64,000 bases of DNA from assembly GCF_056746865.1 (NCBI RefSeq), contig NZ_CM163382.1; one strand, 5' to 3'. The notes under the pieces were generated by a model. The model was not told the DNA's origin and ran no database searches. It saw only the letters and a program-made list of their open reading frames with translations. Positions 10,213 to 50,034 of the stretch are shown here, in pieces. Numbering within the stretch: position 1 is the stretch's first letter; each line of letters opens with the position of its first letter. The translations under genes and the position numbers were made by a program.

Positions 10213-11211
10213 CTAAAGCGTGTTGCCGTGATAAATCTGATACCCGAGGTCAACAGTGTTGTGGTTGTGATCGTTATTTTTAATTTTGCTCAGCAACATT
10301 TGGGCGGCCATCCGACCAATATCAAAACGGGGAGTAATTACGCTGGCGAGGCTTGGGATCATTTGCCTGCCAATCTCCAGCCCATGAAAACCCGCAATGG
10401 AAATTTGTTCTGGCACGGCGAGGTTTCGCTCGCGGCACAGCAGAAGCGCACCCATCGCAATATCGTCATTGGTGCAAAATACACCGTCTAAATCCGGGTT
10501 TGCGCTAAGGGCATCACGCATTAACTGCATTCCTAAATGAATGGATGAGATGGCGCGTGGATTCATGCGTAATGGGGAAAGATTATGCAGCATCATCGCA
10601 TCGCAATACCCCTGATAACGCTGTTCATCGCGGGTGTCATCTTTGGAACCGAGATACAGAATTTTGTGCCTGACTCGCTTCTCCAGCATGGTACACACCA
10701 TGTCAAAAGCGGCCTGCCGATTATCAAAACCGACCTCCATATCCAGCCGTTCTCCCTGTACATCCATCAATTCCACGACCGGAATGGTGGCTGAACGCAG
10801 AAATTTCACCGTCCTGATGGTGTGATATTTTTCCGAAAGTATAATCCCGTCAATGTTATAAGAGAGCAGGTTAATCACCGACTCTTCTTCGGAATCGCGA
10901 TCGTAATTGTAATTAGCAATAAGGGTCTGATAATTATGCTCAGAGGTGACGGATTCTATTCCCGCGAGAATGTCAGCGAAGAGTTGATTTTGAAATGACG
11001 GAATCAAGATACCGAGGGTATAACTTTGTGCATTCAACAACATGCCGGGAGCGCGATTAGGGATATAATTGATCTCTTCCATAATTTTGGCGATGCGCTC
11101 GCCTGTTTCCTTTGCCACCTTTTTCGGCGAGCGGATATAACGACTCACGGTCATTTTTGTTACGCCAGCCAGCGTAGCGATATCCTGTAAAGAAATTCTG
11201 TGATTGCGCAT
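10213..11211 (-). CDS. idnR: LacI-family transcriptional regulator of idonate catabolism
   Basis: N-terminal HTH ([21 protein letters not shown]) plus periplasmic-binding-fold body; start taken at MRNHRISLQ (ORF track start 11241 is an upstream in-frame codon). Confidence 0.88.
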
Positions 11212-11277
11212 AACTTCTCCCAACGTCGGGGGAATCTTCAATCTTCCCCCGAAACTACATCACAATATTTTATTCTT

Positions 11278-12597
11278 TCAGTGCAATACGGCGTTAATGG
11301 CTAACACGCCCAGCAAACCCATAATAGAAATAAGGGTTTCCATCACCGTCCAGGTACGCAACGTTTCACCAACCGTCAGATTAAAATACCCTTTAAATAG
11401 CCAGAAGCCAGGGTCGTTTACGTGTGACGCGATCACGCTGCCCGCACCGGTTGCCAGTACCATTAAAGCGGGATCGGCATGGGTAACGTTGATAATCGGC
11501 AACACCACACCCGCGGTGGTAATGGCCGCGACGGTGGCAGAGCCCAGAGCGATACGCAACAGCGCCGCAACAGTCCAGCACATCAATAACGGCGAAAGTG
11601 TAGTTCCGGTCATTAAGTGTGAAATATAGTGCCCGACACCGCTATCTACTAATACCTGCTTAAACGCGCCGCCGCCAGCGATAATAAACACAATCATCGC
11701 GATAGCGCCTATAGAATCCCCAATGATATCCATGATTTGCTCGATGGTGCGTCCATTACGTCGGCCCAGTGTGAAAATCGCAATAACAATGGCAATAAAC
11801 AGCGCAACGGCAGGGTTACCGACAAATTCAAAGAAGAGGCGCACGGTGTTAGTTTTCGGTAACGTAATTTCACAAACGGCGGCGATAGCCATCAGGATGA
11901 CCGGGATCACGGCAGCGAAAATACTGTTCCAGAAGGAGGGCATCTCCTCTTCGCTAAACAGATGAGGATTAAATAAGCCTTCCGGTGGTGCTTTCTCAAA
12001 GCGAGTTAGCAGTTTAGAAAACAGCGGTCCTGCGACAATAACTGTCGGAATGGTAATGATAAATCCATACAGTAAAGTCGTTCCGAGATTAGCCTCAAAG
12101 ATAGTCGCGATGGCAGTAGGCCCTGGATGTGGCGGCAGAAAACAGTGGGTTACAGAGAGCGCTGCTACCATTGGTACGCCAACATACAACAGGGGTAATC
12201 CTGATGATGCTACGATGGTAAATACCAACGGCAACAGCAGGACAAAACCCACTTCAAAAAACATGGCGAGGCCCACAACCAGACCGGTGATCACTAGCGC
12301 CCATTGCACGCGTTTTTTACCAAAAGTAGCAATCAGCGTAGTGGCGATACGTTGTGCCGCACCCGTATCAGAAATCAGCTTGCCTAACATGGCCCCGAAA
12401 CCGAGGATCATTGCCAGCCCGCCGAGCGTGCTGCCGATACCATTTTGTATAGAGTGCAGGACGGCCTGTGCATCCATCCCTTCGGCAAATCCGACGACGG
12501 CAGCTACCAGAACGAGGGCAATAAAGCCGTTAACTTTAAAGCCGATCATCAGGATAAGAAGCAGCGCGACGCCTGCCGCAATAATGATTAATGGCAT
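11278..12597 (-). CDS. idnT: GntP-family gluconate/idonate:H+ symporter
   Basis: 439-aa polytopic membrane protein MPLIIIAAGVALLL... Confidence 0.9.
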   Translation of the reverse strand: MPLIIIAAGVALLLILMIGFKVNGFIALVLVAAVVGFAEGMDAQAVLHSIQNGIGSTLGGLAMILGFGAMLGKLISDTGAAQRIATTLIATFGKKRVQWALVITGLVVGLAMFFEVGFVLLLPLVFTIVASSGLPLLYVGVPMVAALSVTHCFLPPHPGPTAIATIFEANLGTTLLYGFIITIPTVIVAGPLFSKLLTRFEKAPPEGLFNPHLFSEEEMPSFWNSIFAAVIPVILMAIAAVCEITLPKTNTVRLFFEFVGNPAVALFIAIVIAIFTLGRRNGRTIEQIMDIIGDSIGAIAMIVFIIAGGGAFKQVLVDSGVGHYISHLMTGTTLSPLLMCWTVAALLRIALGSATVAAITTAGVVLPIINVTHADPALMVLATGAGSVIASHVNDPGFWLFKGYFNLTVGETLRTWTVMETLISIMGLLGVLAINAVLH

Positions 12598-12658
12598 AGT
12601 CTTTATCTCTTATTAGTGCCAGAAAAGCAGCGCTTTCGCGCTGCACGTAGGGGGGCTG

Positions 12659-13423
12659 TTAAACAGCCACTAACATGCCGCCATCAACAAACAACAGGTG
12701 GCCGTTTACGAAATCAGAGGCTTTTGAAGAAAGGAACACCGCAGCACCAATCAGTTCCTGCGGATCTCCCCAGCGTGCGGCGGGGGTCCGTTTGCACAAC
12801 CAGGCGGTGAAGGCTTCGTCCTCAACCAGTGCTTTAGTCATTTCTGTTTTGAAATAGCCCGGCGCAATACCGTTGACCTGAATATTGTGGCGCGCCAGCT
12901 CGACGCACATGCCGCGGGTGAGCATTTTTACCGCCCCTTTCGATGCGGCATAAGGGGTGATGGTGTCACGTCCCAGTTCGCTTTGCATCGAGCAAATATT
13001 AATAACTTTACCTGCCTTGCGTTCAACCATGTGACGAGTTACCGCTTGCGATACCAGGAACACGGCGGTCTGGTTTACTGCGATCACATCATTCCACTCT
13101 TGTTCAGGGAACTCAGTAAAAGGATGACGGCGCTGGATACCGGCGTTATTCACCAGCACATCAATGGGGCCGATGTCCTTTTCGATATGTTCAACGGCGG
13201 CATCAATTTCATGTTTATGAGTAACATTAAAAGGTGCGGCAACGGCCTGAATACCCTCCTGGTGGAGTTTTTCTACAGCAAGTTCTGCGCGTTCGGCAGT
13301 AATATCATTAATAATTATTTGTGCGCCATATTTACCCAGGCCGGTTGCCAGTAAAAAGCCAATGCCCTGTGCTGAACCGGTAATCAAGATATTTTTTCCT
13401 GCCAGTGAAAATAGATCGTTCAT
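12659..13423 (-). CDS. idnO: 5-keto-D-gluconate 5-reductase (SDR family)
   Basis: 254-aa ORF with SDR glycine motif ILITGSAQGIG and catalytic YAASK. Confidence 0.9.
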   Translation of the reverse strand: MNDLFSLAGKNILITGSAQGIGFLLATGLGKYGAQIIINDITAERAELAVEKLHQEGIQAVAAPFNVTHKHEIDAAVEHIEKDIGPIDVLVNNAGIQRRHPFTEFPEQEWNDVIAVNQTAVFLVSQAVTRHMVERKAGKVINICSMQSELGRDTITPYAASKGAVKMLTRGMCVELARHNIQVNGIAPGYFKTEMTKALVEDEAFTAWLCKRTPAARWGDPQELIGAAVFLSSKASDFVNGHLLFVDGGMLVAV

Positions 13424-13446
13424 TGTATTATTCCTTTATTTATCTC

Positions 13447-14478
13447 TTAGAAAACAAGCTGGACTTTTGCTGCCTGGGTTTTATCACCGGCGAAACGTAG
13501 CGCCTCTTCCAGGTCAGTGAAGGGATATTCAGCACTCAGTAAAGGCAGTGGATTGATAACGCCATTCGCCAGCCATGACACTGCGGTATTAAATTCGCTG
13601 GTAAAACGGAAAGAGCCTCTGAGTGAAATCTCCTTACCAATCAACGTCATCATTGGGAATTCTGCCATCGCGCCTCCCATACCTACCTGCACCATTACGC
13701 CGCGTGCACGAGTGACCTCCAGACAGGTATTCACTGATGAAGGATGACCGGACACTTCAAAGCTGACATCGAAATAGCCTTTTTCCGCTTTCCAGTGATC
13801 CATGTCGTCGTTTTGTGGGTTTACGAGCACATCCGCCCCCATCTCTTTGCCCAGCGAAAGGGAACGGGGACTCACATCAGCACAGACAATTTCCGCGGCC
13901 CCCAGTGTTTTCACTGCACTGACAATCAGGCAGCCAATGGGTCCAACACCGGAAATAAATACTCGCTTGCCCTGTAACTCGCCGGCCTGATGTGCGGCAT
14001 GAATCGCGACGGCTAAAGGTTCGGCAAAAGCCATAACCTTTTCGTCAGCTTTGGCCGGATAAGGGACACATTGCGACGTTTCGACCATTTTATAACGGGT
14101 AAAACCACCATCAACATGAGGGAAATACATGGCACTGCCAAAAAAACGCATATCTGTACACTGATTCTCGTTATGTTCAATGCAGTATTTGCAGTGACCG
14201 CACGGTTTAGACGGATTAATGGCTACCGTTTGCCCTTCATGTAATTCTGATGAGTCGCTATGAATAACTTTACCGATAACTTCATGACCTAACACCATCG
14301 GTGCCTTTATCATGAAATTACCTACTTTTCCTTCCTGATAATAATGTAAATCGGAACCGCAAATTCCACCTCGGGTTATTTGTACTAATGTTCCATTATT
14401 ATTCCAATCTATCGTCTGCTCGGTAACGGCAACAGTTTTCTTGCCCGCAACAACGCAGGACTGTGTTTTCACTTGCAT
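13447..14478 (-). CDS. idnD: L-idonate 5-dehydrogenase (Zn-dependent MDR family)
   Basis: 343-aa ORF with GHE zinc-ADH motif and Cys-rich structural zinc site (CGHCKYCIEHNENQC). Confidence 0.9.
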   Translation of the reverse strand: MQVKTQSCVVAGKKTVAVTEQTIDWNNNGTLVQITRGGICGSDLHYYQEGKVGNFMIKAPMVLGHEVIGKVIHSDSSELHEGQTVAINPSKPCGHCKYCIEHNENQCTDMRFFGSAMYFPHVDGGFTRYKMVETSQCVPYPAKADEKVMAFAEPLAVAIHAAHQAGELQGKRVFISGVGPIGCLIVSAVKTLGAAEIVCADVSPRSLSLGKEMGADVLVNPQNDDMDHWKAEKGYFDVSFEVSGHPSSVNTCLEVTRARGVMVQVGMGGAMAEFPMMTLIGKEISLRGSFRFTSEFNTAVSWLANGVINPLPLLSAEYPFTDLEEALRFAGDKTQAAKVQLVF

Positions 14479-14577
14479 AAATTCCTCACTGGTCAGGTAG
14501 ACACCTCGGAAGCATTTAAGCGGTTTTAACTGTCATTATTTGTGATGAAGATCACGTCAGAAAATTGTTACATTACT

Positions 14578-14593
14578 ATGTTACGCATAACGT
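14578..14593. promoter_or_regulatory. Putative GntR/IdnR-type operator in divergent idnD/idnK control region
   Basis: Near-palindrome ATGTTACGCATAACGT resembling GntR operator half-sites ATGTTAC...GTAACAT. Confidence 0.4.
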
Positions 14594-14694
14594 GATGTGC
14601 CTTGTAATTCTTATCAGTAGAAATAAAAAAACGTGAAATTATTATGCCGCCAGGCGTAGTATCGCAGCAGGTAAGATGATTCAGGAGATTTTAA

Positions 14695-15258
14695 ATGGCG
14701 GGTGAAAGCTTTATTTTGATGGGCGTTTCAGGGAGTGGTAAAACATTAATTGGTAGCAAGGTTGCCGCGTTATTATCTGCTAAATTTATTGATGGTGACG
14801 ATCTTCATCCAGCCAAAAATATAGATAAAATGTCGCAGGGTATTCCATTATCTGATGAAGATCGACTTCCCTGGCTGGAACGCTTAAATGATGCTTCATA
14901 CAGTCTTTATAAAAAGAATGAAACAGGATTTATTGTCTGTTCATCATTAAAAAAACAGTATCGTGATATTTTACGCAAGGGTAGCCCCCATGTTCATTTC
15001 CTCTGGTTAGATGGCGACTATGAAACTATTCTCGCGCGAATGCAGCGTCGGGCTGGGCATTTTATGCCGGTAGCGTTACTAAAAAGTCAGTTTGAGGCAC
15101 TGGAGCGTCCACAAGCAGATGAACAGGATATTGTGCGCATTGATATCAACCATGATATTGCCAATGTCACCGAACAATGTCGGCAGGCTGTGCTGGCGAT
15201 ACGACAAAACAGAATATGTGCGAAAGAGGGCAGCGCCTCAGATCAGCGCTGCGAATGA
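14695..15258 (+). CDS. idnK: Gluconokinase (thermosensitive, idonate pathway)
   Basis: 187-aa ORF with P-loop GVSGSGKT. Confidence 0.9.
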   Translation: MAGESFILMGVSGSGKTLIGSKVAALLSAKFIDGDDLHPAKNIDKMSQGIPLSDEDRLPWLERLNDASYSLYKKNETGFIVCSSLKKQYRDILRKGSPHVHFLWLDGDYETILARMQRRAGHFMPVALLKSQFEALERPQADEQDIVRIDINHDIANVTEQCRQAVLAIRQNRICAKEGSASDQRCE

Positions 15259-15261
15259 TTT

Positions 15262-16281
15262 TCAAAAATCGGCTTTCAACACCACGCGGTAACGCGCCTT
15301 ACCGTCGCGCACATGCTGGATGGCGTCGTTAATTTTCGACATCGGGAACAGTTCGGTGGTCGGCGCAACCTTGCTGCGGGCGGCAAAACGCATCAGCTTA
15401 CGCAGCTCATAAGGCGTGCCGGTAGCAGAACCAGAGACGCTGCGATCGCCCGCAATTAACGTAAAGGCCGGAACAGACAGCGGCGTGAGAACCGCACCGA
15501 CCGTATGGAAATTACCGCCATAGGTCAGCGCCTCAAAATAGGGCTGCCAGTCGAGGCTGACGTTGACGGTGTTGATAATGAGATCAAACTGCCCCGCCAG
15601 TGCTTTCAGTGCCTGCGGATCGCGGCTATTCACCACTTTATCGGCACCCATCGCCAGCACTTCCTGCTCTTTCGCCGGATTAGAACTAAAGGCTGTCACC
15701 TCGCATCCCATTGCGTGCAGAAGTTTTATAGCGATATGCCCCAGCCCGCCAATACCAATTACCCCAACGCGGCTGGTAGCAGTGATATGGTGCATCAACA
15801 GTGGTTTAAAGACCGTGATACCGCCGCACAACAGCGGCCCGGCGGACTCGATATCAATATTTTCTGGCAGTGGAATCACCCATTGCCAGTCCGCACGCAA
15901 CTTCTCGGCAAAGCCACCGCGATTCATAATCGTCGGCACCGCACCTTGCTCGCAGTTGATCTGATTACCGCTAATACAGGCGTCGCAGTGACCACAGCTA
16001 CGCGCCGTCCAGCCAATCCCGACACGCTGACCGACCTGCAAACCTTTATCCTGCGCGGCGCTCCCGAGTGCCACCACGCGCCCAATCACCTCATGCCCGG
16101 CAACCAGCGGATATTGTGAAAATCCCCATTCGTTATCGATCATCGACAGATCGGAATGGCAGATCCCGCAGTAATCCACCTGCACTTCAACATCTTGTGG
16201 CCTCAGCTCACCGGGATCGTACTCATAAACTTCCAGTTCGCCGCCCGCTTCTTTTGCGGCATAGCTTTTTATCATCGACAT
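15262..16281 (-). CDS. ahr: NADPH-dependent aldehyde reductase (Zn-ADH family)
   Basis: 339-aa product from MSMIKSYAA; zinc-ADH motifs GHEVIG and CGICHSD; ORF track start 16323 is upstream in-frame. Confidence 0.85.
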
Positions 16282-37451: not shown

Positions 37452-40812
<3,361 letters not shown>

Positions 40813-40816
<4 letters not shown>

Positions 40817-41334
40817 AACCCATACTCCAGACGGAACAGCAGGCAGTGCTCGACGGCTTTCGCCACGTATTTTTTCACGGAGCTGATGGAAACACCGAGT
40901 TTGTGCGCAATCTCGCTGTATGTCAGACCATCCAGTTGCGAAAGCAGAAACGCTTCACGTGTTTTGCCGTTTAGCCCGTCCAGCATGCTGTCGAGGAGTT
41001 GTAGGGTCTCGAGTTGGCTTTCGCGTTCCTCAGGTGAAGGCGCTCCCCCCTCCGGCATAAGCGCCAGCATCTCCAGATACGCTTTTTCCAGCGCGTTTCG
41101 GCGAAACAGGTCCACCATCACGCGTTTGGCGATAGTGCAGAGGAAGGAGCGAGGATCGCGGATCGTCGAGAGCGTTTCGCTGACCATTACCCGCAAAAAA
41201 GTGTCCTGGGCAATGTCATCTGCATCAAAAGCAGACTGGAGTTTGCGCGTCAGCCAGCTTTTCAACCAGCCGTGATGTGTGCCATAAAGCGACTCGAACG
41301 TTAAGGAAGCTGTGGTAGTGGCGCGGTCAGACAT
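40813..41334 (-). CDS. fecI: ECF sigma factor FecI
   Basis: 173-aa sigma-70 region 2/4 protein (…[10 protein letters not shown]…, C-terminal HTH …[22 protein letters not shown]…). Confidence 0.95.
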
Positions 41335-41625: not shown

Positions 41626-41901
41626 GTGGCTTCCATTTCCATCAGATGTCCTTCCTGCTCCGCTACTGAAGGCGTGGTGCGTAACGGCAAAAGCACTGCC
41701 GGACATCAGCGCTATCTCTGCTCTCCTTGCCGTAAAACATGGCAACTACAGTTCACTTACACCGCCTCTCAGCCCGGTAAGCACCAGAAAATCATTGATA
41801 TGGCCATGAATGGCGTCGGATGTCGCGCCAGTGCACGCATTATGGGCGTTGGCCTCAACACGGTTTTACGTCACTTAAAAAACTCAGGCCGCAGTCGGTA
41901 A
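41626..41901 (+). CDS. insA: IS1 InsA (zinc-finger/HTH repressor)
   Basis: 91-aa [26 protein letters not shown]... Confidence 0.85.
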
Positions 41902-42323
41902 CCTCGCGCATACAACCGGGCAGTGATGTGATTGTCTGCGCTGAAATGGACGAACAGTGGGGCTACGTCGGTGCTAAATCACGTCAGCGCTGGCTGTTTT
42001 ACGCGTATGACAGGATACGGAGGACGGTTGTGGCGCACGTCTTCGGTGAACGCACTCTGGCCACACTGGAGCGTCTTCTGAGCCTGCTGTCGGCCTTTGA
42101 GGTCGTGGTATAGATGACGGATGGCTGGCCGCTGTATGAATCACGCCTGAAGGGAAAGCTGCACGTTATCAGCAAGCGTTACACTCAGCGCATTGAGCGA
42201 CATAATCTGAATCTGAGACAACATCTGGCAAGGCTGGGACGGAAGTTACTGTCGTTCTCAAAATCGGTGGAGTTGCATGACAAGGTCATCGGGCATTATC
42301 TGAACATAAAACACTATCAGTAA
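41820..42323 (+). pseudogene. insB: IS1 InsB frame interrupted by an in-frame TAG (42111-42113)
   Basis: Track splits InsB into 41820-42113 and 42114-42323; ...[20 protein letters not shown]... where canonical InsB has ...VVIWMTDGW. Confidence 0.75.
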
Positions 42324-42406
42324 GTTGGAGTCATTACCTCCTCCCGAACTCAAAGCTATCATACAGATAATTACTGGTTAACCCTATATAGGGCATTTTA
42401 AAGTGT

Positions 42407-42800
42407 TGTGATCTTACCCAGCAATAGTGGACACGCGGCTAAGTGAGTAAACTCTCAGTCAGAGGTGACTCACAAGACAAAACAGTTTCAACCAGTAAAA
42501 AAACGTAAACACCATTCGCATGAATTTCGTAGTTAAGATCTGAAGCTTGCAGAATGCATCGGTGTTACTGCCGGAGTCCGTGAACTTAGTCTGCATGAAT
42601 CACCACAGCTTTACATCTGTCGCAGTAAACAGCAAAATCAGCAAACTTACTTAATTATATCGAGTGCGATTACAATCGCTGGCGATGGTACAGTTGGTGT
42701 GGCGGTCTCAGTCCGGAACAATTTGAAAATCAGAATCTCACTTAAAACGGCATCCATTTTACAAAAGATGGCCGTCTGTGTATTTGTAATGAATACCTTC
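42407..42800 (+). pseudogene. Degenerate IS3 left end and orfA remnant
   Basis: TGATCTTACCCAGCAATAGTGGACACGCGGCTAAGTGAGTAAACTCTCAGTCAGAGGTGACTCAC matches IS3 terminus; start codon position reads AAG and frame has stops. Confidence 0.6.
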
Positions 42801-43084
42801 TACATGTTTAGAGTGCATAATCCACGACAAGGCGATATCCTAAAAATTAGCTAGCAGGCAACTTTGATGGCATAGATAATGTTTTTAGTAAAAAAGAGTT
42901 GACTGAATATAATACAGCCTCTTCCTACATAAGAAGGAATGTGCTCACAAAAAAAAACCATTAGTCTGCTTCCTGTTCTTACAATAATCAGTATTATGTA
43001 TTTTATTTATATAGCAAAATATGCTTGTTACACCTGTCATAATTAGGCATGGTAAAATTATTGACTGAACCCTGGGGGAGAAAG

Positions 43085-43342
43085 ATGCACAGTGATTATT
43101 ATAATATGATTTTTGGTGAAAAATTGGCCAATATTTTATATGAAGCTAACTCTCAATTTTTTTACGAGAGAAATGTCATAGAAGAGGCAGTCAACGCTTT
43201 ATTCTGTGAGCGTGAAATAATAAACAACAAGAACATAATAAAGAAGCTGATGTTCTTTTTGTCAGATGTTAATCACACCAAGAAAGATGTTGTTCAGAGC
43301 GCACTTAATATTATCATTGACATTACATCAGGTGATATTTGA
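43085..43342 (+). CDS. Small hypothetical protein (85 aa) in AT-rich DNA
   Basis: ATG 8 nt after GGGGGAGAAAG RBS; N/I/K-rich product; no recognisable domain. Confidence 0.35.
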   Translation: MHSDYYNMIFGEKLANILYEANSQFFYERNVIEEAVNALFCEREIINNKNIIKKLMFFLSDVNHTKKDVVQSALNIIIDITSGDI

Positions 43343-43499
43343 GATTTTACATAAAAGATAATCTCTCAAGGAGTCTTATCTGAAAACGAAATATATAGTC
43401 CCTCTCGTTTTGTAATATCGATTGGCTTTGTTGAATCGGTTACGTACCCCGGAGCCGGTCATATTTTCAGGTAATACACACGCTTTCAGACATTTCGGC

Positions 43500-43800
43500 T
43501 TTCGTCATTTTTGTATCATGGGCATAGCTTCTGCTACCTGACCATCATAATCACGCAGCTTCAGTGAAGCAGTGACCACCTGTTTAACCCGGTGTATCGT
43601 TATGATCTTATCCAGCAATTGAACCGCCCCGGGTTTCCTGGAGAGTGTTTTATCTGTGAACTCAGGCTGCCAGATCATCGTTTCCGATGGAAGCATAATA
43701 AGCTTTTTCTGCTTCTGCCGGTGGGATATGGCCCTGCCTTTCCAGCAATCGTCGATTGTTATACCAGTCCACCCACGTGAGTGTGGTCAGCTCATCATAC
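43500..43800 (-). pseudogene. 3' fragment of an IS3-family orfB transposase
   Basis: Minus-strand translation ...ELTTLTWVDWYNNRRLLERQGHIPPAEAEKAYYASIGNDDLAA-stop (stop at 43663). Confidence 0.5.
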
Positions 43801-44074
43801 TGACACGTGCATTACCCCTACCGCGATAATGCAACCGTACAATATAGGGCGTTTCCTAAACGCAGCCCTCATCACTCCAATCCAACAAGACACAGCATTT
43901 TTGATCACGAAGAAAGACAAATAATTTCCGTAAATGTTTCCGTTATTACAAATAACAACAGTGTTTTACATTTCTTTGGCCTCAGGCCCGCGCATGTTGC
44001 CATTCGATGTCATTTTCCTGACTCGTTTCTTCTTTATGGTGTAGTGTGATCTTCACTTTATGGATGCTAACAAT

Positions 44075-45433
44075 ATGAAAAGAAAAATTATTCCCGTGCT
44101 AATCGGTTGTACGCTCTCTTTCTCTGCCCTGGCGGCACAACCTACGGCTGAGCGCTATGTCGTCAGTTTTCCAGAAGGCACGCACGTGAACTACGCCGGC
44201 GCATTTGCCAGTGCATTCCCGAACGGCCTTCCGGTTGGGATAGGTTCTGGCCTGCTGTTCACCGGTAAACAGGGCGATGCCCTGACATTCGCAACCATTA
44301 CCGATCGCGGTCCGAACGCGGATTCACCGAAAGAGGGGAAAAACGAAACTAAAATTTTCGTTACGCCAGATTTCGCGCCGCTGCTGATGACGATTCGTGT
44401 ACAAAACGGCAAAGCGGAGGCCATCGATCCCCGTCCTCTGCATGACGATAAAGGCGCGATCAACGGTCTGCCGCTGGCAAGCGACGTGATTGGCTCCACC
44501 AATGAAGTGGCCTTCAGCGACACGTTACATAGACTGAAGGGGGATAATCGCGGGCTGGATACGGAAGGGATCACTCCGGATGGTAAAGGAGGTTACTGGC
44601 TGTGCGATGAGTATGGCCCGTTCCTGATTAACATCGACAGTAAAGGGAAAATCCTGGCAATCCACGGTCCGCAGGCGGCGGAAGGGGAAAAAGCGATTGC
44701 GGGCGGTTTGCCAAATATCCTCAAATGGCGTCAGGCGAACCGCGGCTTTGAAGGCCTCACCCGTATGCCGGACGGGCGTATTATTGTCGCCGTGCAAAGT
44801 ACGCTGGATATCGACGCTAAGAGCAAGAAAAAGGCGCTGTTTACGCGTCTGGTGAGCTTCGATCCGGCAAGCGGAAAAACCGCGATGTACGGTTATCCTA
44901 TCGACAGCGCGGCCTACAGCAAAAACAGCGACGCTAAAATCGGAGACATCGTGGCGCTCGATAACCAGCACATCCTGCTGATCGAACAGGGAAGAGATAA
45001 AAACAACAGAATGCGTAACCTGATTTACGAGGTCGATCTCAATAAGGCGAGCGACCTGTCAGGCTTCGACAAGCCGGGTGAGTATCCGGAGTTTGATGAT
45101 GAGAAAACCCTGTCACAGCGCGGCATTACCCTTGCGCAGAAAACGCAGGTTGTTGATCTGCGCTCCTTGGGCTGGCAGCAGGAGAAGGCTGAAGGGTTGG
45201 CGCTGATCGACAGCAAAACGCTGGCGGTGGCGAACGATAACGACTTTGGCGTGAAGGTGGCGATGCAACATCCGGTCGAGGGCAAGACATTCAAGGATTA
45301 TCGGGTGAACGCGGAAGGAAAGCTGACGCTTGACGACAAGCAGGTTGAAACGACCCTCAGAGTGAAGCCACTGGAGAAACCGGAGTCTGACAGTGAACTG
45401 TGGATTGTGACGCTGCCGGAAGCGTTGAAATAA
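44075..45433 (+). CDS. Secreted protein, phytase-like / esterase-like beta-propeller family (tentative)
   Basis: Signal peptide MKRKIIPVLIGCTLSFSALAAQP; 452-aa product; family call from overall pattern only. Confidence 0.45.
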   Translation: MKRKIIPVLIGCTLSFSALAAQPTAERYVVSFPEGTHVNYAGAFASAFPNGLPVGIGSGLLFTGKQGDALTFATITDRGPNADSPKEGKNETKIFVTPDFAPLLMTIRVQNGKAEAIDPRPLHDDKGAINGLPLASDVIGSTNEVAFSDTLHRLKGDNRGLDTEGITPDGKGGYWLCDEYGPFLINIDSKGKILAIHGPQAAEGEKAIAGGLPNILKWRQANRGFEGLTRMPDGRIIVAVQSTLDIDAKSKKKALFTRLVSFDPASGKTAMYGYPIDSAAYSKNSDAKIGDIVALDNQHILLIEQGRDKNNRMRNLIYEVDLNKASDLSGFDKPGEYPEFDDEKTLSQRGITLAQKTQVVDLRSLGWQQEKAEGLALIDSKTLAVANDNDFGVKVAMQHPVEGKTFKDYRVNAEGKLTLDDKQVETTLRVKPLEKPESDSELWIVTLPEALK

Positions 45434-45671
45434 GTTTATAAGGTACGGACAGCAGTATCGCTTAGTTTTTCAAATTCATGTATGTGAACAATATTGGGGT
45501 TCCGGCGTAGACCCCCAATGAAAGCGTCACCACGTGAAAACATGCCTGCACGGTTTACACGTCATCCCATGGTGGCAGCCGGTTAACTTTCCTGCGCCAC
45601 CAGTGGAAAAAGGCCATAAGCAGTCCGAACAAAAGTAAGCGTACAGCGAGGGCCGTATTGACGGGGATGTG

Positions 45672-47057
45672 TTATTCAGCTGGCAGTGCTATGCGCCACG
45701 GAAGCAGTTCGCTGACCCGGTTGACCGGCCAGTCTGCTATGACGCCAAGCACATGGCGAAGGTAGCTTTCTGGATCCACGTCATTCAGTTTGCACGTCCC
45801 GATCAGGCTGTACAGTAGCGCTCCCCGCTCACCACCATGGCCAGAGCCGAAGAACAGGGTCTTCATCTTTTCACGCAACCAGCTTTCCAGGGATTTCAAC
45901 AGCGGTTTCGTTTTTCGCTGACGTTCAGCAAGCCGCTGCTCTGCCGGCATTCCCCTTATATCCGCCTCTATGGCGTACAACTGACCGATCTGCTCTAGGG
46001 CTTCTTCCGTCAGTGCTGACGGGATGCGGACGTGCACATCGTGGATCTTTCGGCGGGCATGAGCCCAGCAGGCAGCTTCCGTTATCCCACCATTGCGATA
46101 CAGCTCGTTGAACCCGGCGTACGCATCCGCTTGCAGCACACCGCTGAAGCAAGCAAGATGAGTCTGCGGATGGATGCCTTTTCTGTCCGGGCTGTAAGCG
46201 AACCACACTGCAGGTGCCAACGCTGACCCGGCATTGCGGTCATCACGAACATACGCCCACAACCGCCCGGTCTTCGTCTTCTTATTACCCGGCAGCAGTA
46301 CCTGGACCGGGGTATCATCGGCATGGAGTTTGCCGTCAGTCATGACATAGCCATGAAGCGCCTCTTCCAGCGGAGACAGCAGCCGGCAGCATGCATCCAC
46401 CCAGCCCGACAGCAGTGAACGGCTCAGCTCCACACCTTGCCGGCCGTATATTTCTGACTGGCAATACAGCGGGGTGTGCTCTGCATACTTCGAGGTCAGC
46501 ACGCGGGCCAGCAGCCCCGGTCCGGCGATACCCCGCTCGATGGGCCGCGAAGGTGCAGGTGCCTGCACGATGGCATCGCACTGAGTACAGGCATGTTTTT
46601 CCCGTACCGTCCGGATAACCCGGAAGGCGCTACGCATCAACTCCAGCTGTTCGGCGGTATCCTCGCCCAGATAGCTCAGTGAACCGCCGCAGTTCGGGCA
46701 GCACGGCGCCGCAGGCAACAGTCGCTTTTCGTCACGGGGTAGTGATTCAGGGAACGGCTTACGGGTGCGGGTCTGACGCAACGGACGCTGTACTGCCGGG
46801 TCATACACCCTACCAGTCAGCGTATCGCTCTCTTTCTGAAGCCGGTTCAGATCGGCTTCCATTTGTGCGATACGGCGGGAGACTTTTTCGGAACGACTGC
46901 CGAAGTTCATCCGGCGGAGTTTATCCAGCTGCGCCTGCAGATGGTCTATTTCGCGCTCCCGGTTGCTCAGCTTTTCCTGCAGGGCGTGGATCAGCGCTTC
47001 CTGTTCGGCCAGGCGCTGTTTTAGCAGGAAGATGTCGTCAGAAGAGATGTCGTTCAT
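45672..47057 (-). CDS. IS66-family transposase TnpC (orf3)
   Basis: 461-aa ORF; N-terminal leucine zipper, zinc motif CPNCGG...CTQCD, C-terminal ...[19 protein letters not shown]... Confidence 0.85.
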
Positions 47058-47106
47058 AAGCCCGTATTTTACCGGGCTTATTCTGTGACAACCAGGATAA
47101 AGAGAT

Positions 47107-47454
47107 TTACAGCATGGTCAGGGAGGTCAGCAGCCGCTTGGGCTGTCGCCAGTCGATACCTTCCAGCAGCATCGCCAGCTGCGCCTGCGTAAGGAACACT
47201 TTGCCATCACGGGCTGACGGCCAGGCGAAGCGCCCACGCTCCAGCCGTTTGGTCAGGAGGCACAGTCCGTCACCGGTGGACCACAGCAGTTTAACCTGAC
47301 TGCCGCTGCGGCCCCGGAAAATGAAAACATGGCCGGACATGGGATCGTCTTTCAGCGCCGTTTGTACTTTCGCAGCCAGGCCGTTGAAGCCATTTCTCAT
47401 ATCGGTGATACCGGCAACCAGCCAAATTTTGGTCCCGGAAGGTAACGGGATCAT
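47107..47454 (-). CDS. IS66-family TnpB (orf2)
   Basis: 115-aa [30 protein letters not shown]...; 4-bp overlap with orf1. Confidence 0.85.
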
Positions 47455-47852
47455 CGCTTCAGTTCCTGTATCAGCAGAGTCAGGAGCTTTTCGCTGACAT
47501 TGCCATTGAAGCGGAGCGTCCCGTGCCGGAACGTTACCTCACAGCTGATACTGAGGGTTTCCGGGTCCTCTGCGAGCGATTCTGGCTGTTCGGCAGCTGC
47601 ATCGAGAGTCACAGGAAGTAGCTGGGGGCTCTCTGAAGAAGGTAATAGCAGCTTTCCCTCGCGCCATTGTTGTCGCCATTTGAACAACAGATTGGCGTTA
47701 ATGCCATTTTCAAGAGCAAGTTTTGAGATGGATATCCCGGGTTCACAGGAGGCAGCAACGAGCAGCTGTTTAAATTCGGGAGGATAATTAGGGCAGCCTT
47801 TTCGCCTGCCGGGAGTCACATTTTTCTGCATATCTGACACTTTGGTTCCCAC
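47451..47852 (-). CDS. IS66-family TnpA (orf1, HTH)
   Basis: 133-aa ORF ...YPPEFKQLLVAASCEPGISISKLALENGINANLLFKWRQQ... Confidence 0.8.
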   Translation of the reverse strand: MGTKVSDMQKNVTPGRRKGCPNYPPEFKQLLVAASCEPGISISKLALENGINANLLFKWRQQWREGKLLLPSSESPQLLPVTLDAAAEQPESLAEDPETLSISCEVTFRHGTLRFNGNVSEKLLTLLIQELKR

Positions 47853-48185: not shown

Positions 48186-48620
48186 TTACAGCCTCTGTAA
48201 CGGATTATCAGCCCTGGCATCTTCCGACGGCACCTCCTGCCGCCCCCACGCCCTGCTGTATACCCCGGTACCGCAGCGTGGGCAGCACTTTTCCCCCTCA
48301 TAATCTTCGTCACACATCACACAAAACCACTTTCTCACCTTCACCGTATAATCCGGAACCGTCATGCCCTGCAGATGCAAACGACGGGCCTCTTTCTCTG
48401 CCGGGTCAAGCCAGGTACATCGCAGCAGGATTTTTTCAGCGACAGTCATCTGGTCATGTTCAAACCACGGTGGTTGTCCGTCATTGCCCCGCTGAAGTGT
48501 TAACGGGCATCCACAGGACACACAGCACAAAACGTCCTGTCGGTTGTGCTTCGCAGCTTCTTTCGCCGTAACAAAATGGCCTTTGCTGTCATTCGCCATA
48601 TAACAGTTCAGAATTCGCAT
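48186..48620 (-). CDS. Hypothetical zinc-ribbon protein (paralog B, about 144 aa from MRILNCYMAND)
   Basis: Cys clusters CCVSCGC and CVMCDEDYEGEKCCPRCGTG; shared PWFEH motif with upstream paralog. Confidence 0.5.
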   Translation of the reverse strand: MRILNCYMANDSKGHFVTAKEAAKHNRQDVLCCVSCGCPLTLQRGNDGQPPWFEHDQMTVAEKILLRCTWLDPAEKEARRLHLQGMTVPDYTVKVRKWFCVMCDEDYEGEKCCPRCGTGVYSRAWGRQEVPSEDARADNPLQRL

Positions 48621-49015
48621 ATTTCCTCCTGAGTTGTCCGGGGAATACTGAATCCTCCGGTCTGGCAGTGTGTGCAGTACTGCTCCCCATAATAATCGTG
48701 GTGACATTGTCTGCAGTGCCAGCTGGCTTTACGCACCACGGGTAAGGCATCCGGTACGAATTGCTGCAGACGTTTAATCAACTGTATTTCTCTGCGCTCC
48801 GGCCTGACATAAGGGCACTGTTGACCGTGCTCTGTCAGCCTGTCGTCAGTGTGTTCAAACCAGGGAAGTTCAGTGTCGTATTGCGGATGGTATCTGAGTG
48901 CACTGCCACACAAGTGGCAGGTGTAGTGAGCATAAGGTGCGGCCTGTGCAGTACGGGCGCCCGTCAGACGTCCGTTGCCATCAAGAGCGATAAAGGATTT
49001 TGCGTACATAGTCAT
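48608..49015 (-). CDS. Hypothetical zinc-ribbon protein (paralog A, 135 aa)
   Basis: CHLCGS...PWFEH...CRQCHHDYYGEQYCTHCQTG; same motif order as paralog B. Confidence 0.5.
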   Translation of the reverse strand: MTMYAKSFIALDGNGRLTGARTAQAAPYAHYTCHLCGSALRYHPQYDTELPWFEHTDDRLTEHGQQCPYVRPERREIQLIKRLQQFVPDALPVVRKASWHCRQCHHDYYGEQYCTHCQTGGFSIPRTTQEEICEF

Positions 49016-49268: not shown

Positions 49269-49838
49269 TCAACTCCGGCTACAGCCAAAATTGCGCTCAC
49301 CGGTGCAGTGAGCTTTGGTATACTCCTTCGCCAGATAGTCAGCACGTTCCAGCACTTGCTGAAAGCCGGTGTCATCATTACGCGCCAGCCACACCGCCGG
49401 CCAGGCCGGAAAATGCACCAGCGTGGCATGGCACCCGACATCCACTCCCAGGGCACTGCACCACGCCTGTTTAATCATCCCGGCCAGAGACTCCGGAGCG
49501 CGGTAATCACCGGCACGACACCAGGTATCCCGGTTGACCAGCAGCATCAGGTGATAGTGTTTTTTACCTTTGCACTCCCCAAACTCCCGGGCCCAGACGT
49601 AATGCAGGGTTGTGGGATGCACGCGTTTACCTTCCCGATGCTTACGTTTCTGGTAAGCGTCGATTCGGGCTTTCAGGGCATTGATGAAGCGGGATATCAC
49701 AGCTGCGTCCGTTGCTGCCGGTACATCCGGGAAACGCAGGTCAACCCGCAATGCCGTCAGGCGGGGATGAACATTCAGTGCGTGCCGCACCGTCTCACGA
49801 ATACGTTGCTGCCAGAAGGGGTTGTATTTGTAGGTCAT
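49269..49838 (-). CDS. Hypothetical protein, possibly YagK/YfjJ (inovirus Gp2-like) family
   Basis: 189-aa product from MTYKYNPFWQQRIRETV..., GGAG RBS 10 nt upstream; family assignment from memory; alternative start 49874. Confidence 0.45.
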   Translation of the reverse strand: MTYKYNPFWQQRIRETVRHALNVHPRLTALRVDLRFPDVPAATDAAVISRFINALKARIDAYQKRKHREGKRVHPTTLHYVWAREFGECKGKKHYHLMLLVNRDTWCRAGDYRAPESLAGMIKQAWCSALGVDVGCHATLVHFPAWPAVWLARNDDTGFQQVLERADYLAKEYTKAHCTGERNFGCSRS

Positions 49839-50034
49839 GGTTAAATCTCCGTATGGTTCATACGGAATAGCCACGTCGTAAAAAATGCGCAGAGTCCCTG
49901 AAGTGACCTCCGGCAGGACACTGTCTCAGGCACTCTGTGATAACCCGAACGGTCGTCTCCGGACTGACGGTTGAATTTTCAGCGTTGTTTTTTTAATGTA
50001 AAAAACCGGTTACGGGTAAGGCTGTGAGGAGGGA

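Follow-up and report, generated by a model that had tools for sequence, protein, structure and literature searches.

On balance, we read the gene at positions 44075–45433 (+ strand) of the analysed stretch of DNA (64,000 nucleotides, hereafter the window) as encoding a periplasmic phosphoesterase that would be induced by PhoB upon phosphate starvation. The gene would have been captured as a self-contained unit of promoter and open reading frame (about 43996–45437), with the chromosome of an Enterobacter-like bacterium as its source, and it now lies amid insertion sequence (IS) debris in the ferric-citrate (fec) island of Escherichia coli. The gene, its family assignment in the databases and its island are already known, and an exported hydrolase under phosphate control is of an ordinary kind, whereas the conserved Pho box described below appears to be new within the literature that we searched.

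The program-made list of open reading frames counts 457 aa from the first ATG (44060–45433, +), a start that we rejected as it is absent from most orthologues. The ATG at 44075 is the RefSeq start (WP_000823243.1) and the only one kept across orthologues, which likewise retain the GGA/AGG motif about 10 nt in front of it, bearing out the 452-residue protein (452 aa plus stop, orf34 of the SRL island) of the original prediction. The clear Sec signal peptide claimed with it was equally upheld: residues 1–20 (44075–44134, +; MKRKIIPVLIGCTLSFSALA followed by AQP) exhibit by inspection the three-part layout of a signal peptidase I substrate, comprising a basic n-region (MKRK), a hydrophobic core (IIPVLIGCTLSFS) and a small-x-small motif with the predicted cleavage between ALA and AQP, and this n/h/c layout together with the motif is preserved in about 60 orthologues. 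The same residues form a lower-confidence helix in the predicted structure, and no twin-arginine motif was found in the N-terminus of the 452-aa protein. A lipobox-like LIGC (residues 9–12) was rejected as the mark of a lipoprotein because Cys12 is not conserved, being S, T, L, Y or A in many orthologues; in addition, Cys12 lies too near the N-terminus and the hydrophobic core runs on past it.

Two of the checks proposed with the original prediction, a domain search and a structure prediction, gave concrete outcomes. Pfam assigned residues 55–391 (44237–45247, +) not to an unrelated family but to PF13449 'Phytase-like', also named 'esterase-like activity of phytase' (E = 4.4e-43, profile positions 4–284 of 284; 148.6 bits versus a gathering cut-off of 27.6), the only family matched at E <= 0.1, and all 120 homologues listed have the same domain, while a search of NCBIfam yielded no match for the 452-aa protein. 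The predicted fold is a β-propeller modelled with high confidence, with YjiK, glutaminyl cyclases, NHL-repeat binding domains, lactonases of the SMP30/regucalcin group and many glycoside hydrolases as its best structural matches. The Bacillus β-propeller phytase is absent from the 60 best of these matches, with Foldseek concurring, and searches of the PDB by phmmer or with a 73-sequence profile returned no real relatives, only single-blade similarities to designed and NHL-type propellers. A true β-propeller phytase (PF02333, EC 3.1.3.8), finding no support from Pfam, from the PDB sequence and profile searches or from the fold search, was rejected. According to the model, the protein is thus a β-propeller from a family without a solved structure, and 'phytase' is a label, not a finding: the phytase-like interpretation is supported overall and stands as a family assignment, with its enzymatic name downgraded to that of the family. 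Across the orthologues, eleven acidic residues are near-invariant (D77, D162, E164, E179, E226, D291, E304, E339, E373, D388 and D390), several of them within the conserved motifs DRGPN (77–81), DxE (162–164), DEYGP (178–182), NRGFEG (222–227), KAEG (371–374) and NDNDFG (387–392), which suggests a Ca2+ site by analogy with other propeller hydrolases that depend on metal.

The Pho box consensus, derived from the phoA, pstS and phoB promoters, is CTGTCAT-AWAW-CTGTCAY. We scored the 14 core positions of CTGTCAT-N4-CTGTCAY in the upstream regions of orthologues at 74 genome loci of the Enterobacterales, which reduce to 70 distinct sequences. Side by side, these regions have a single conserved element in common, a direct repeat of the TGTCA type with its two copies 11 bp apart, as is characteristic of PhoB binding sites. 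At least 11 of the 14 core positions matched in all 70 regions, at −62 to −79 from the ATG, and at least 12 in 58 of them (83%), two being perfect, as in Franconibacter (CTGTCATTAATCTGTCAC). At the 11/14 level the controls gave 1.0% for 3335 random 160-nt windows and 1.7% for 483 upstream regions of other long open reading frames from the same loci, none of the latter reaching 13. The 70 regions are related by descent and do not count as independent; about 15–17 clearly distinct promoter versions can be told apart among them. In the box-anchored alignment the information content is close to 2 bits at TGTCAT and 1–1.6 bits at TGTCAY, with the flanking positions and most of the spacer staying under 0.5 bits. 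A −10 hexamer lies 10 nt downstream of the box; its positions were left out of the anchoring, yet its T, A and final T are kept in 91%, 97% and 70% of 67 anchored orthologue promoters.

In E. coli, the putative Pho box, i.e. the PhoB binding site, reads ATGTCAT-TTTC-CTGACTC (44007–44024, +; ATGTCATTTTCCTGACTC) and takes the place of the −35 element. The putative −10 hexamer TATGGT (44035–44040, +), identified by orthologue conservation, follows after 10 nt, so that the arrangement is that of a Pho-regulon promoter. No canonical −35/−10 sigma-70 promoter was found in 43800–45700, as expected for an activator-dependent promoter. With 11 of 14 core matches and a degraded second half-site, the E. 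coli box is the weakest of the set, and it is not significant in the window alone (9 sites versus 8.8 expected); the argument therefore rests on cross-species conservation. In some lineages the number of tandem TGTCAT half-sites rises from two to three or four, spaced by 11 bp or less (orthologue loci L031 and L071, −75 to −50; L062, about −90 to −45), which suggests extended PhoB binding arrays. Farther away, one homologue with 44% identity has a 12/14 box at −65, and two further distant homologues have no such box. Taking these promoter sequences together, we consider it very likely that the orthologue group is Pho-regulated, and probable that the E. coli copy still is. The literature search found no experimental report of PhoB-dependent induction or PhoB~P binding for this gene.

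From these elements the following course of events can be proposed. At phosphate scarcity, phosphorylated PhoB would occupy 44007–44024 and bring RNA polymerase to the −10 hexamer at 44035–44040, a step that we infer because of the conserved motif and the known architecture of pho promoters. Translation from the ATG at 44075, Sec export and cleavage after Ala20 would, as judged from the sequence, release a soluble periplasmic protein of about 432 aa. On the face of the mature propeller, the acidic residues may by analogy bind Ca2+ and a phosphate ester, and the enzyme would free phosphate from an organic mono- or di-ester for uptake by Pst, phytate being only one candidate. Phosphoester hydrolysis as the chemistry is, in our estimate, reasonably probable. 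The phosphate-scavenging role that the original prediction had put forward as an interpretation gains support from the conserved Pho box and from the phosphorus links of the family, with the enzyme function itself being what we infer.

These links come from distant homologues and from work on other organisms. In distant homologues, PF13449 is fused to 5'-nucleotidase C-terminal, calcineurin-like phosphoesterase and ParB-like nuclease domains; other fusion partners are cell-surface anchors (SLH, type IX secretion tails) and a 'choice-of-anchor I' domain. In Nodularia, genes of PF13449 proteins show some of the strongest induction upon phosphate limitation (PMC9846622, PMC3610870), and PtPhos2/HASP1 of Phaeodactylum tricornutum, also a PF13449 protein, is the most abundant secreted protein of this diatom, its gene being strongly induced without phosphate (PMC7283521, PMC6617621). 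In cyanobacteria, PF13449 is sometimes fused to the Psip1 phosphatase (PMC11098088); Psip1 itself, a new cyanobacterial phosphatase, is a domain distinct from PF13449. The naming of Nodularia nsp7010 hints indirectly that PF13449 also includes the 'atypical alkaline phosphatase' of Synechococcus PCC 7942; to the contrary, a diatom paper treats 'Aty-PhoA' and 'Phytase-like' as two distinct domains.

The alternative that survives best is an exported β-propeller of another function, such as a lactonase, a cyclase-like enzyme or a binding protein, whose starvation control would serve some other need. It draws on the best structural matches, which range from YjiK and the glutaminyl cyclases through NHL domains and SMP30/regucalcin lactonases to glycoside hydrolases, and on a family devoid of demonstrated chemistry: the literature yielded no measured activity for any PF13449 member, and searches by accession, Pfam and InterPro identifiers returned no study of the protein or of the enzymology of the family. 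We nevertheless regard this alternative as unlikely, given that a Pho box is conserved upstream of the orthologues, that phosphoesterase and nuclease domains occur as fusion partners in distant homologues, and that family members are repeatedly induced by phosphate starvation in cyanobacteria and diatoms; moreover, dense, near-invariant acidic residues are typical of metal-dependent hydrolases and not of binding domains.

A genuine phytase, that is a periplasmic Ca2+-dependent enzyme acting on inositol hexakisphosphate, would be a special case of the phosphoesterase reading, and we hold it to be rather improbable. The family name of PF13449 points to it, a Pho-regulated exported enzyme would fit phytate in gut or plant habitats, and the secreted PhyA of Xanthomonas oryzae, which is needed for growth on phytate, may belong to PF13449. 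In a genome note, the orthologue of Pantoea brenneri figures as a 'phytase-encoding sequence', by annotation only, and one strain without it is also recorded (PMC12697123).

The surroundings of the gene are those of an IS-bounded passenger in a fec or SRL-type genomic island, located between transposase genes and fragments by fecIRABCDE, with fecI/fecR at 39863–41334, scraps of IS1, IS3 and IS5, an IS66 element and CP4-like genes. The flanks named in the original prediction, an IS3-family orfB fragment on one side and an IS66-family element on the other, were both recovered. The upstream boundary is formed by the C-terminal 43 codons of an IS3-family OrfB transposase (43662–43793, −; translation ELTTLTWVDWYNNRRLLERQGHIPPAEAEKAYYASIGNDDLAA followed by the stop), annotated in RefSeq as 'IS3 family transposase, incomplete' and too short to give a Pfam match. 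The IS66-family element (45672–47852, −) comprises tnpC (45672–47057), tnpB (47107–47454) and tnpA (47451–47852) according to Pfam and RefSeq, where the tnpA given here is the mechanical open reading frame from GTG and that of RefSeq is 47451–47831. The claim that the gene lies in lower-GC DNA did not hold: its GC content is 54.2% (63% at third codon positions, GC3) versus 51.0% for the entire window, low values being limited to an upstream stretch (42330–43800, 39%) and the leader of the gene (43795–44074, 41%). Likewise, 'stranded' does not suit the gene, which appears to have been captured with its own promoter and maintained.

Several features of the debris add to the earlier description. 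Absent from it were an IS5/IS1182 scrap (43467–43597) and a further IS3 scrap (42641–42745), as well as the tail of a DUF6404 gene at the downstream boundary (45555–45632, −; RefSeq) and an internal deletion in the IS66 tnpC. The DUF6404 tail consists of the last 24 residues (positions 91–114 of 115 of the Pfam PF19942 profile) and has no counterpart beside the orthologues in other genera. In the 461-aa TnpC, DDE_Tnp_IS66 covers profile positions 1–222 of 284 and is directly followed by the C-terminal element, which points to the in-frame loss of about 60 residues from within the protein. Although RefSeq gives TnpC as a complete protein, the element is probably no longer mobile. A small gene of the YmgB/AriR family (biofilm/acid-resistance regulator; 43085–43342, +) stands alone between IS3 and IS5 scraps within the 39% GC stretch (33–42% in 500-bp windows) and differs in origin from the phytase-like gene with its 54% GC. 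Beside fecI, an IS1F copy (41626–42323, +) is annotated with an internal stop besides the programmed frameshift in identical genomes and is another decayed insertion sequence of the fec island. Beyond the IS66 element (48186–49015 and 49269–49874, both −), two adjoining zinc-ribbon proteins with repeated CxxC motifs and an 'inovirus Gp2 family' (YfjJ-like) gene represent typical cargo of CP4-57-like islands.

This arrangement is widespread. The 3-kb segment 43000–46000 is 100% identical to many complete genomes, where it likewise adjoins fecIRABCDE, IS1 and CP4-like genes, and the same arrangement is present in E. coli MS6198 and 042. Among 5426 complete E. coli genomes, 2262 contain promoter and open reading frame (43996–45437), in each case with an identity of at least 99%; the placements are mostly chromosomal, 2238 versus 66 on plasmids. 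The 3-kb island context accounts for 1525 genomes, and several hundred others (about 665) hold the gene in a different setting. On an IncHI1B plasmid from poultry (NZ_CP073989.1, locus 10675–15645), the gene lies without fec between two IS1 copies, resembling a composite transposon. Some E. coli have a second, divergent allele (450 aa, 71% identity, 28 contigs), which suggests an independent acquisition from another donor. Two database entries from remote taxa, a 2971-bp contig of an 'uncultured Ruminococcaceae' that is 99.6% identical to the E. coli island segment (CAJKJS010000287.1) and a contig labelled Chryseobacterium sp. 18061 with an enterobacterial orthologue very close to that of Citrobacter sp. 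18056 (CACSKA010000015.1), look like mis-binned or contaminated assemblies.

Orthologues of 60–91% identity are chromosomal in many genera, including Enterobacter, Lelliottia, Pantoea, Pluralibacter, Scandinavium and Buttiauxella, and further Serratia, Yersinia, Cronobacter/Franconibacter, Cedecea and Mangrovibacter. The gene is always solitary, its neighbours varying among Lelliottia/Enterobacter, Pantoea and four more distant lineages, and comparing the gene neighbourhoods of these lineages gave no information on function. The similarity to Enterobacter DNA (86% for the best match, in Enterobacter/Lelliottia) begins at 43996–44007 and ends at 45433–45439, and we take promoter plus open reading frame, on the basis of these alignment ends, to be the unit that was transferred and kept. 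Upstream of it, an ancestral intergenic block of 56 bp (43920–43975, +) can still be aligned in the same position to eight Enterobacter loci with 76–80% identity, while the DNA between this block and the Pho box is not conserved; the block may serve as a second regulatory site or be a relic. Synonymous divergence (dS) from the sampled species is 0.55–0.84, and the actual donor therefore lies outside the reference set. The dN/dS ratio of 0.08–0.11 versus ten Enterobacter-group orthologues indicates purifying selection.

These data also bear on the weakest alternative, a silent and useless passenger that hitch-hiked with the fec genes and persists in E. coli only through its recent acquisition, the promoter having decayed. 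In its favour, no E. coli copy falls below 99% identity, suggesting one recent acquisition, the surroundings are transposase debris, and relative to Enterobacter the box has lost one position (CTGACAC to CTGACTC) and the leader shows a 5-bp insertion and a 12-bp deletion. We nevertheless consider this alternative very unlikely, as the reading frame is full-length in nearly all carriers (at least 80% coverage in 2190 of the 2262 genomes), dN/dS amounts to about 0.09 for the lineage to which the E. coli copy belongs, the gene occurs outside the 3-kb context and was moved separately by IS1 onto plasmids without fec, and both the −10 hexamer and the first half-site have been preserved.

If the reading as a PhoB-induced phosphoesterase is true, two fifths of the sequenced E. 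coli, among them ST131 isolates, the enteroaggregative strain 042 and Shigella with the SRL island, would carry a starvation enzyme that is missing from K-12 and hence from every classical study of the Pho regulon. As a wider and more tentative proposal, to which we give somewhat less credence than to the reading itself, the gene may be the enterobacterial founder of a class of phosphate-starvation PF13449 β-propellers, secreted and phosphate-regulated in cyanobacteria, diatoms and Enterobacterales, and an accessory Pho-regulon member in about 40% of E. coli, often beside fec, that would open a phosphorus source K-12 cannot use. Phosphorus-limited oceans and soils are rich in PF13449 proteins, which genome surveys frequently tally as 'phytase' without a biochemical basis; E. 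coli, with one gene and a clear promoter, would be an easy genetic system for finding the substrate of the family. Should the prediction fail, the gene is an annotated passenger of a well-known island.

Among known propellers, the C-terminal domain of YjiK of E. coli (PDB 3qqz; SdiA-regulated family) has only half the size, can be aligned to roughly half of the model and provides no functional clue. The human soluble calcium-activated nucleotidase SCAN-1/CANT1 (PDB 2h2n) shares 13% identity with no detectable sequence homology. The Bacillus β-propeller phytase (PhyC/TS-Phy; PF02333) is a Ca2+-dependent phosphate-releasing enzyme under the control of phosphate starvation and, like the protein described here according to its prediction, a secreted β-propeller; in contrast, a sequence relationship is not detectable, and the shared word 'phytase' is nominal. 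A homology restricted to the domain level links the protein to PtPhos2/HASP1 and to nsp7010/nsp6490 of Nodularia spumigena, which likewise combine PF13449, a signal peptide and secretion with strong low-phosphate induction (PMC7283521, PMC6617621, PMC9846622), but are larger or multi-domain, belong to a diatom and a cyanobacterium and obey other regulators. The SRL pathogenicity island of Shigella flexneri harbours the same gene as orf34 (99.78% identity in a re-annotation table; PMC6980539) with the same neighbours, i.e. the fec operon, IS66 L0013–L0015 and CP4-like genes, without any difference; in the literature found it is catalogued, with no regulation or activity reported. Finally, compared with phoA, pstS and ugpB, the fold is unrelated and the gene is accessory (42% of genomes) instead of core, but it shares with them the predicted Sec export to the periplasm and a promoter in which the −35 element gives way to two 7-bp direct repeats of the TGTCA type at a distance of 11 bp, with the −10 hexamer 10 nt farther downstream.
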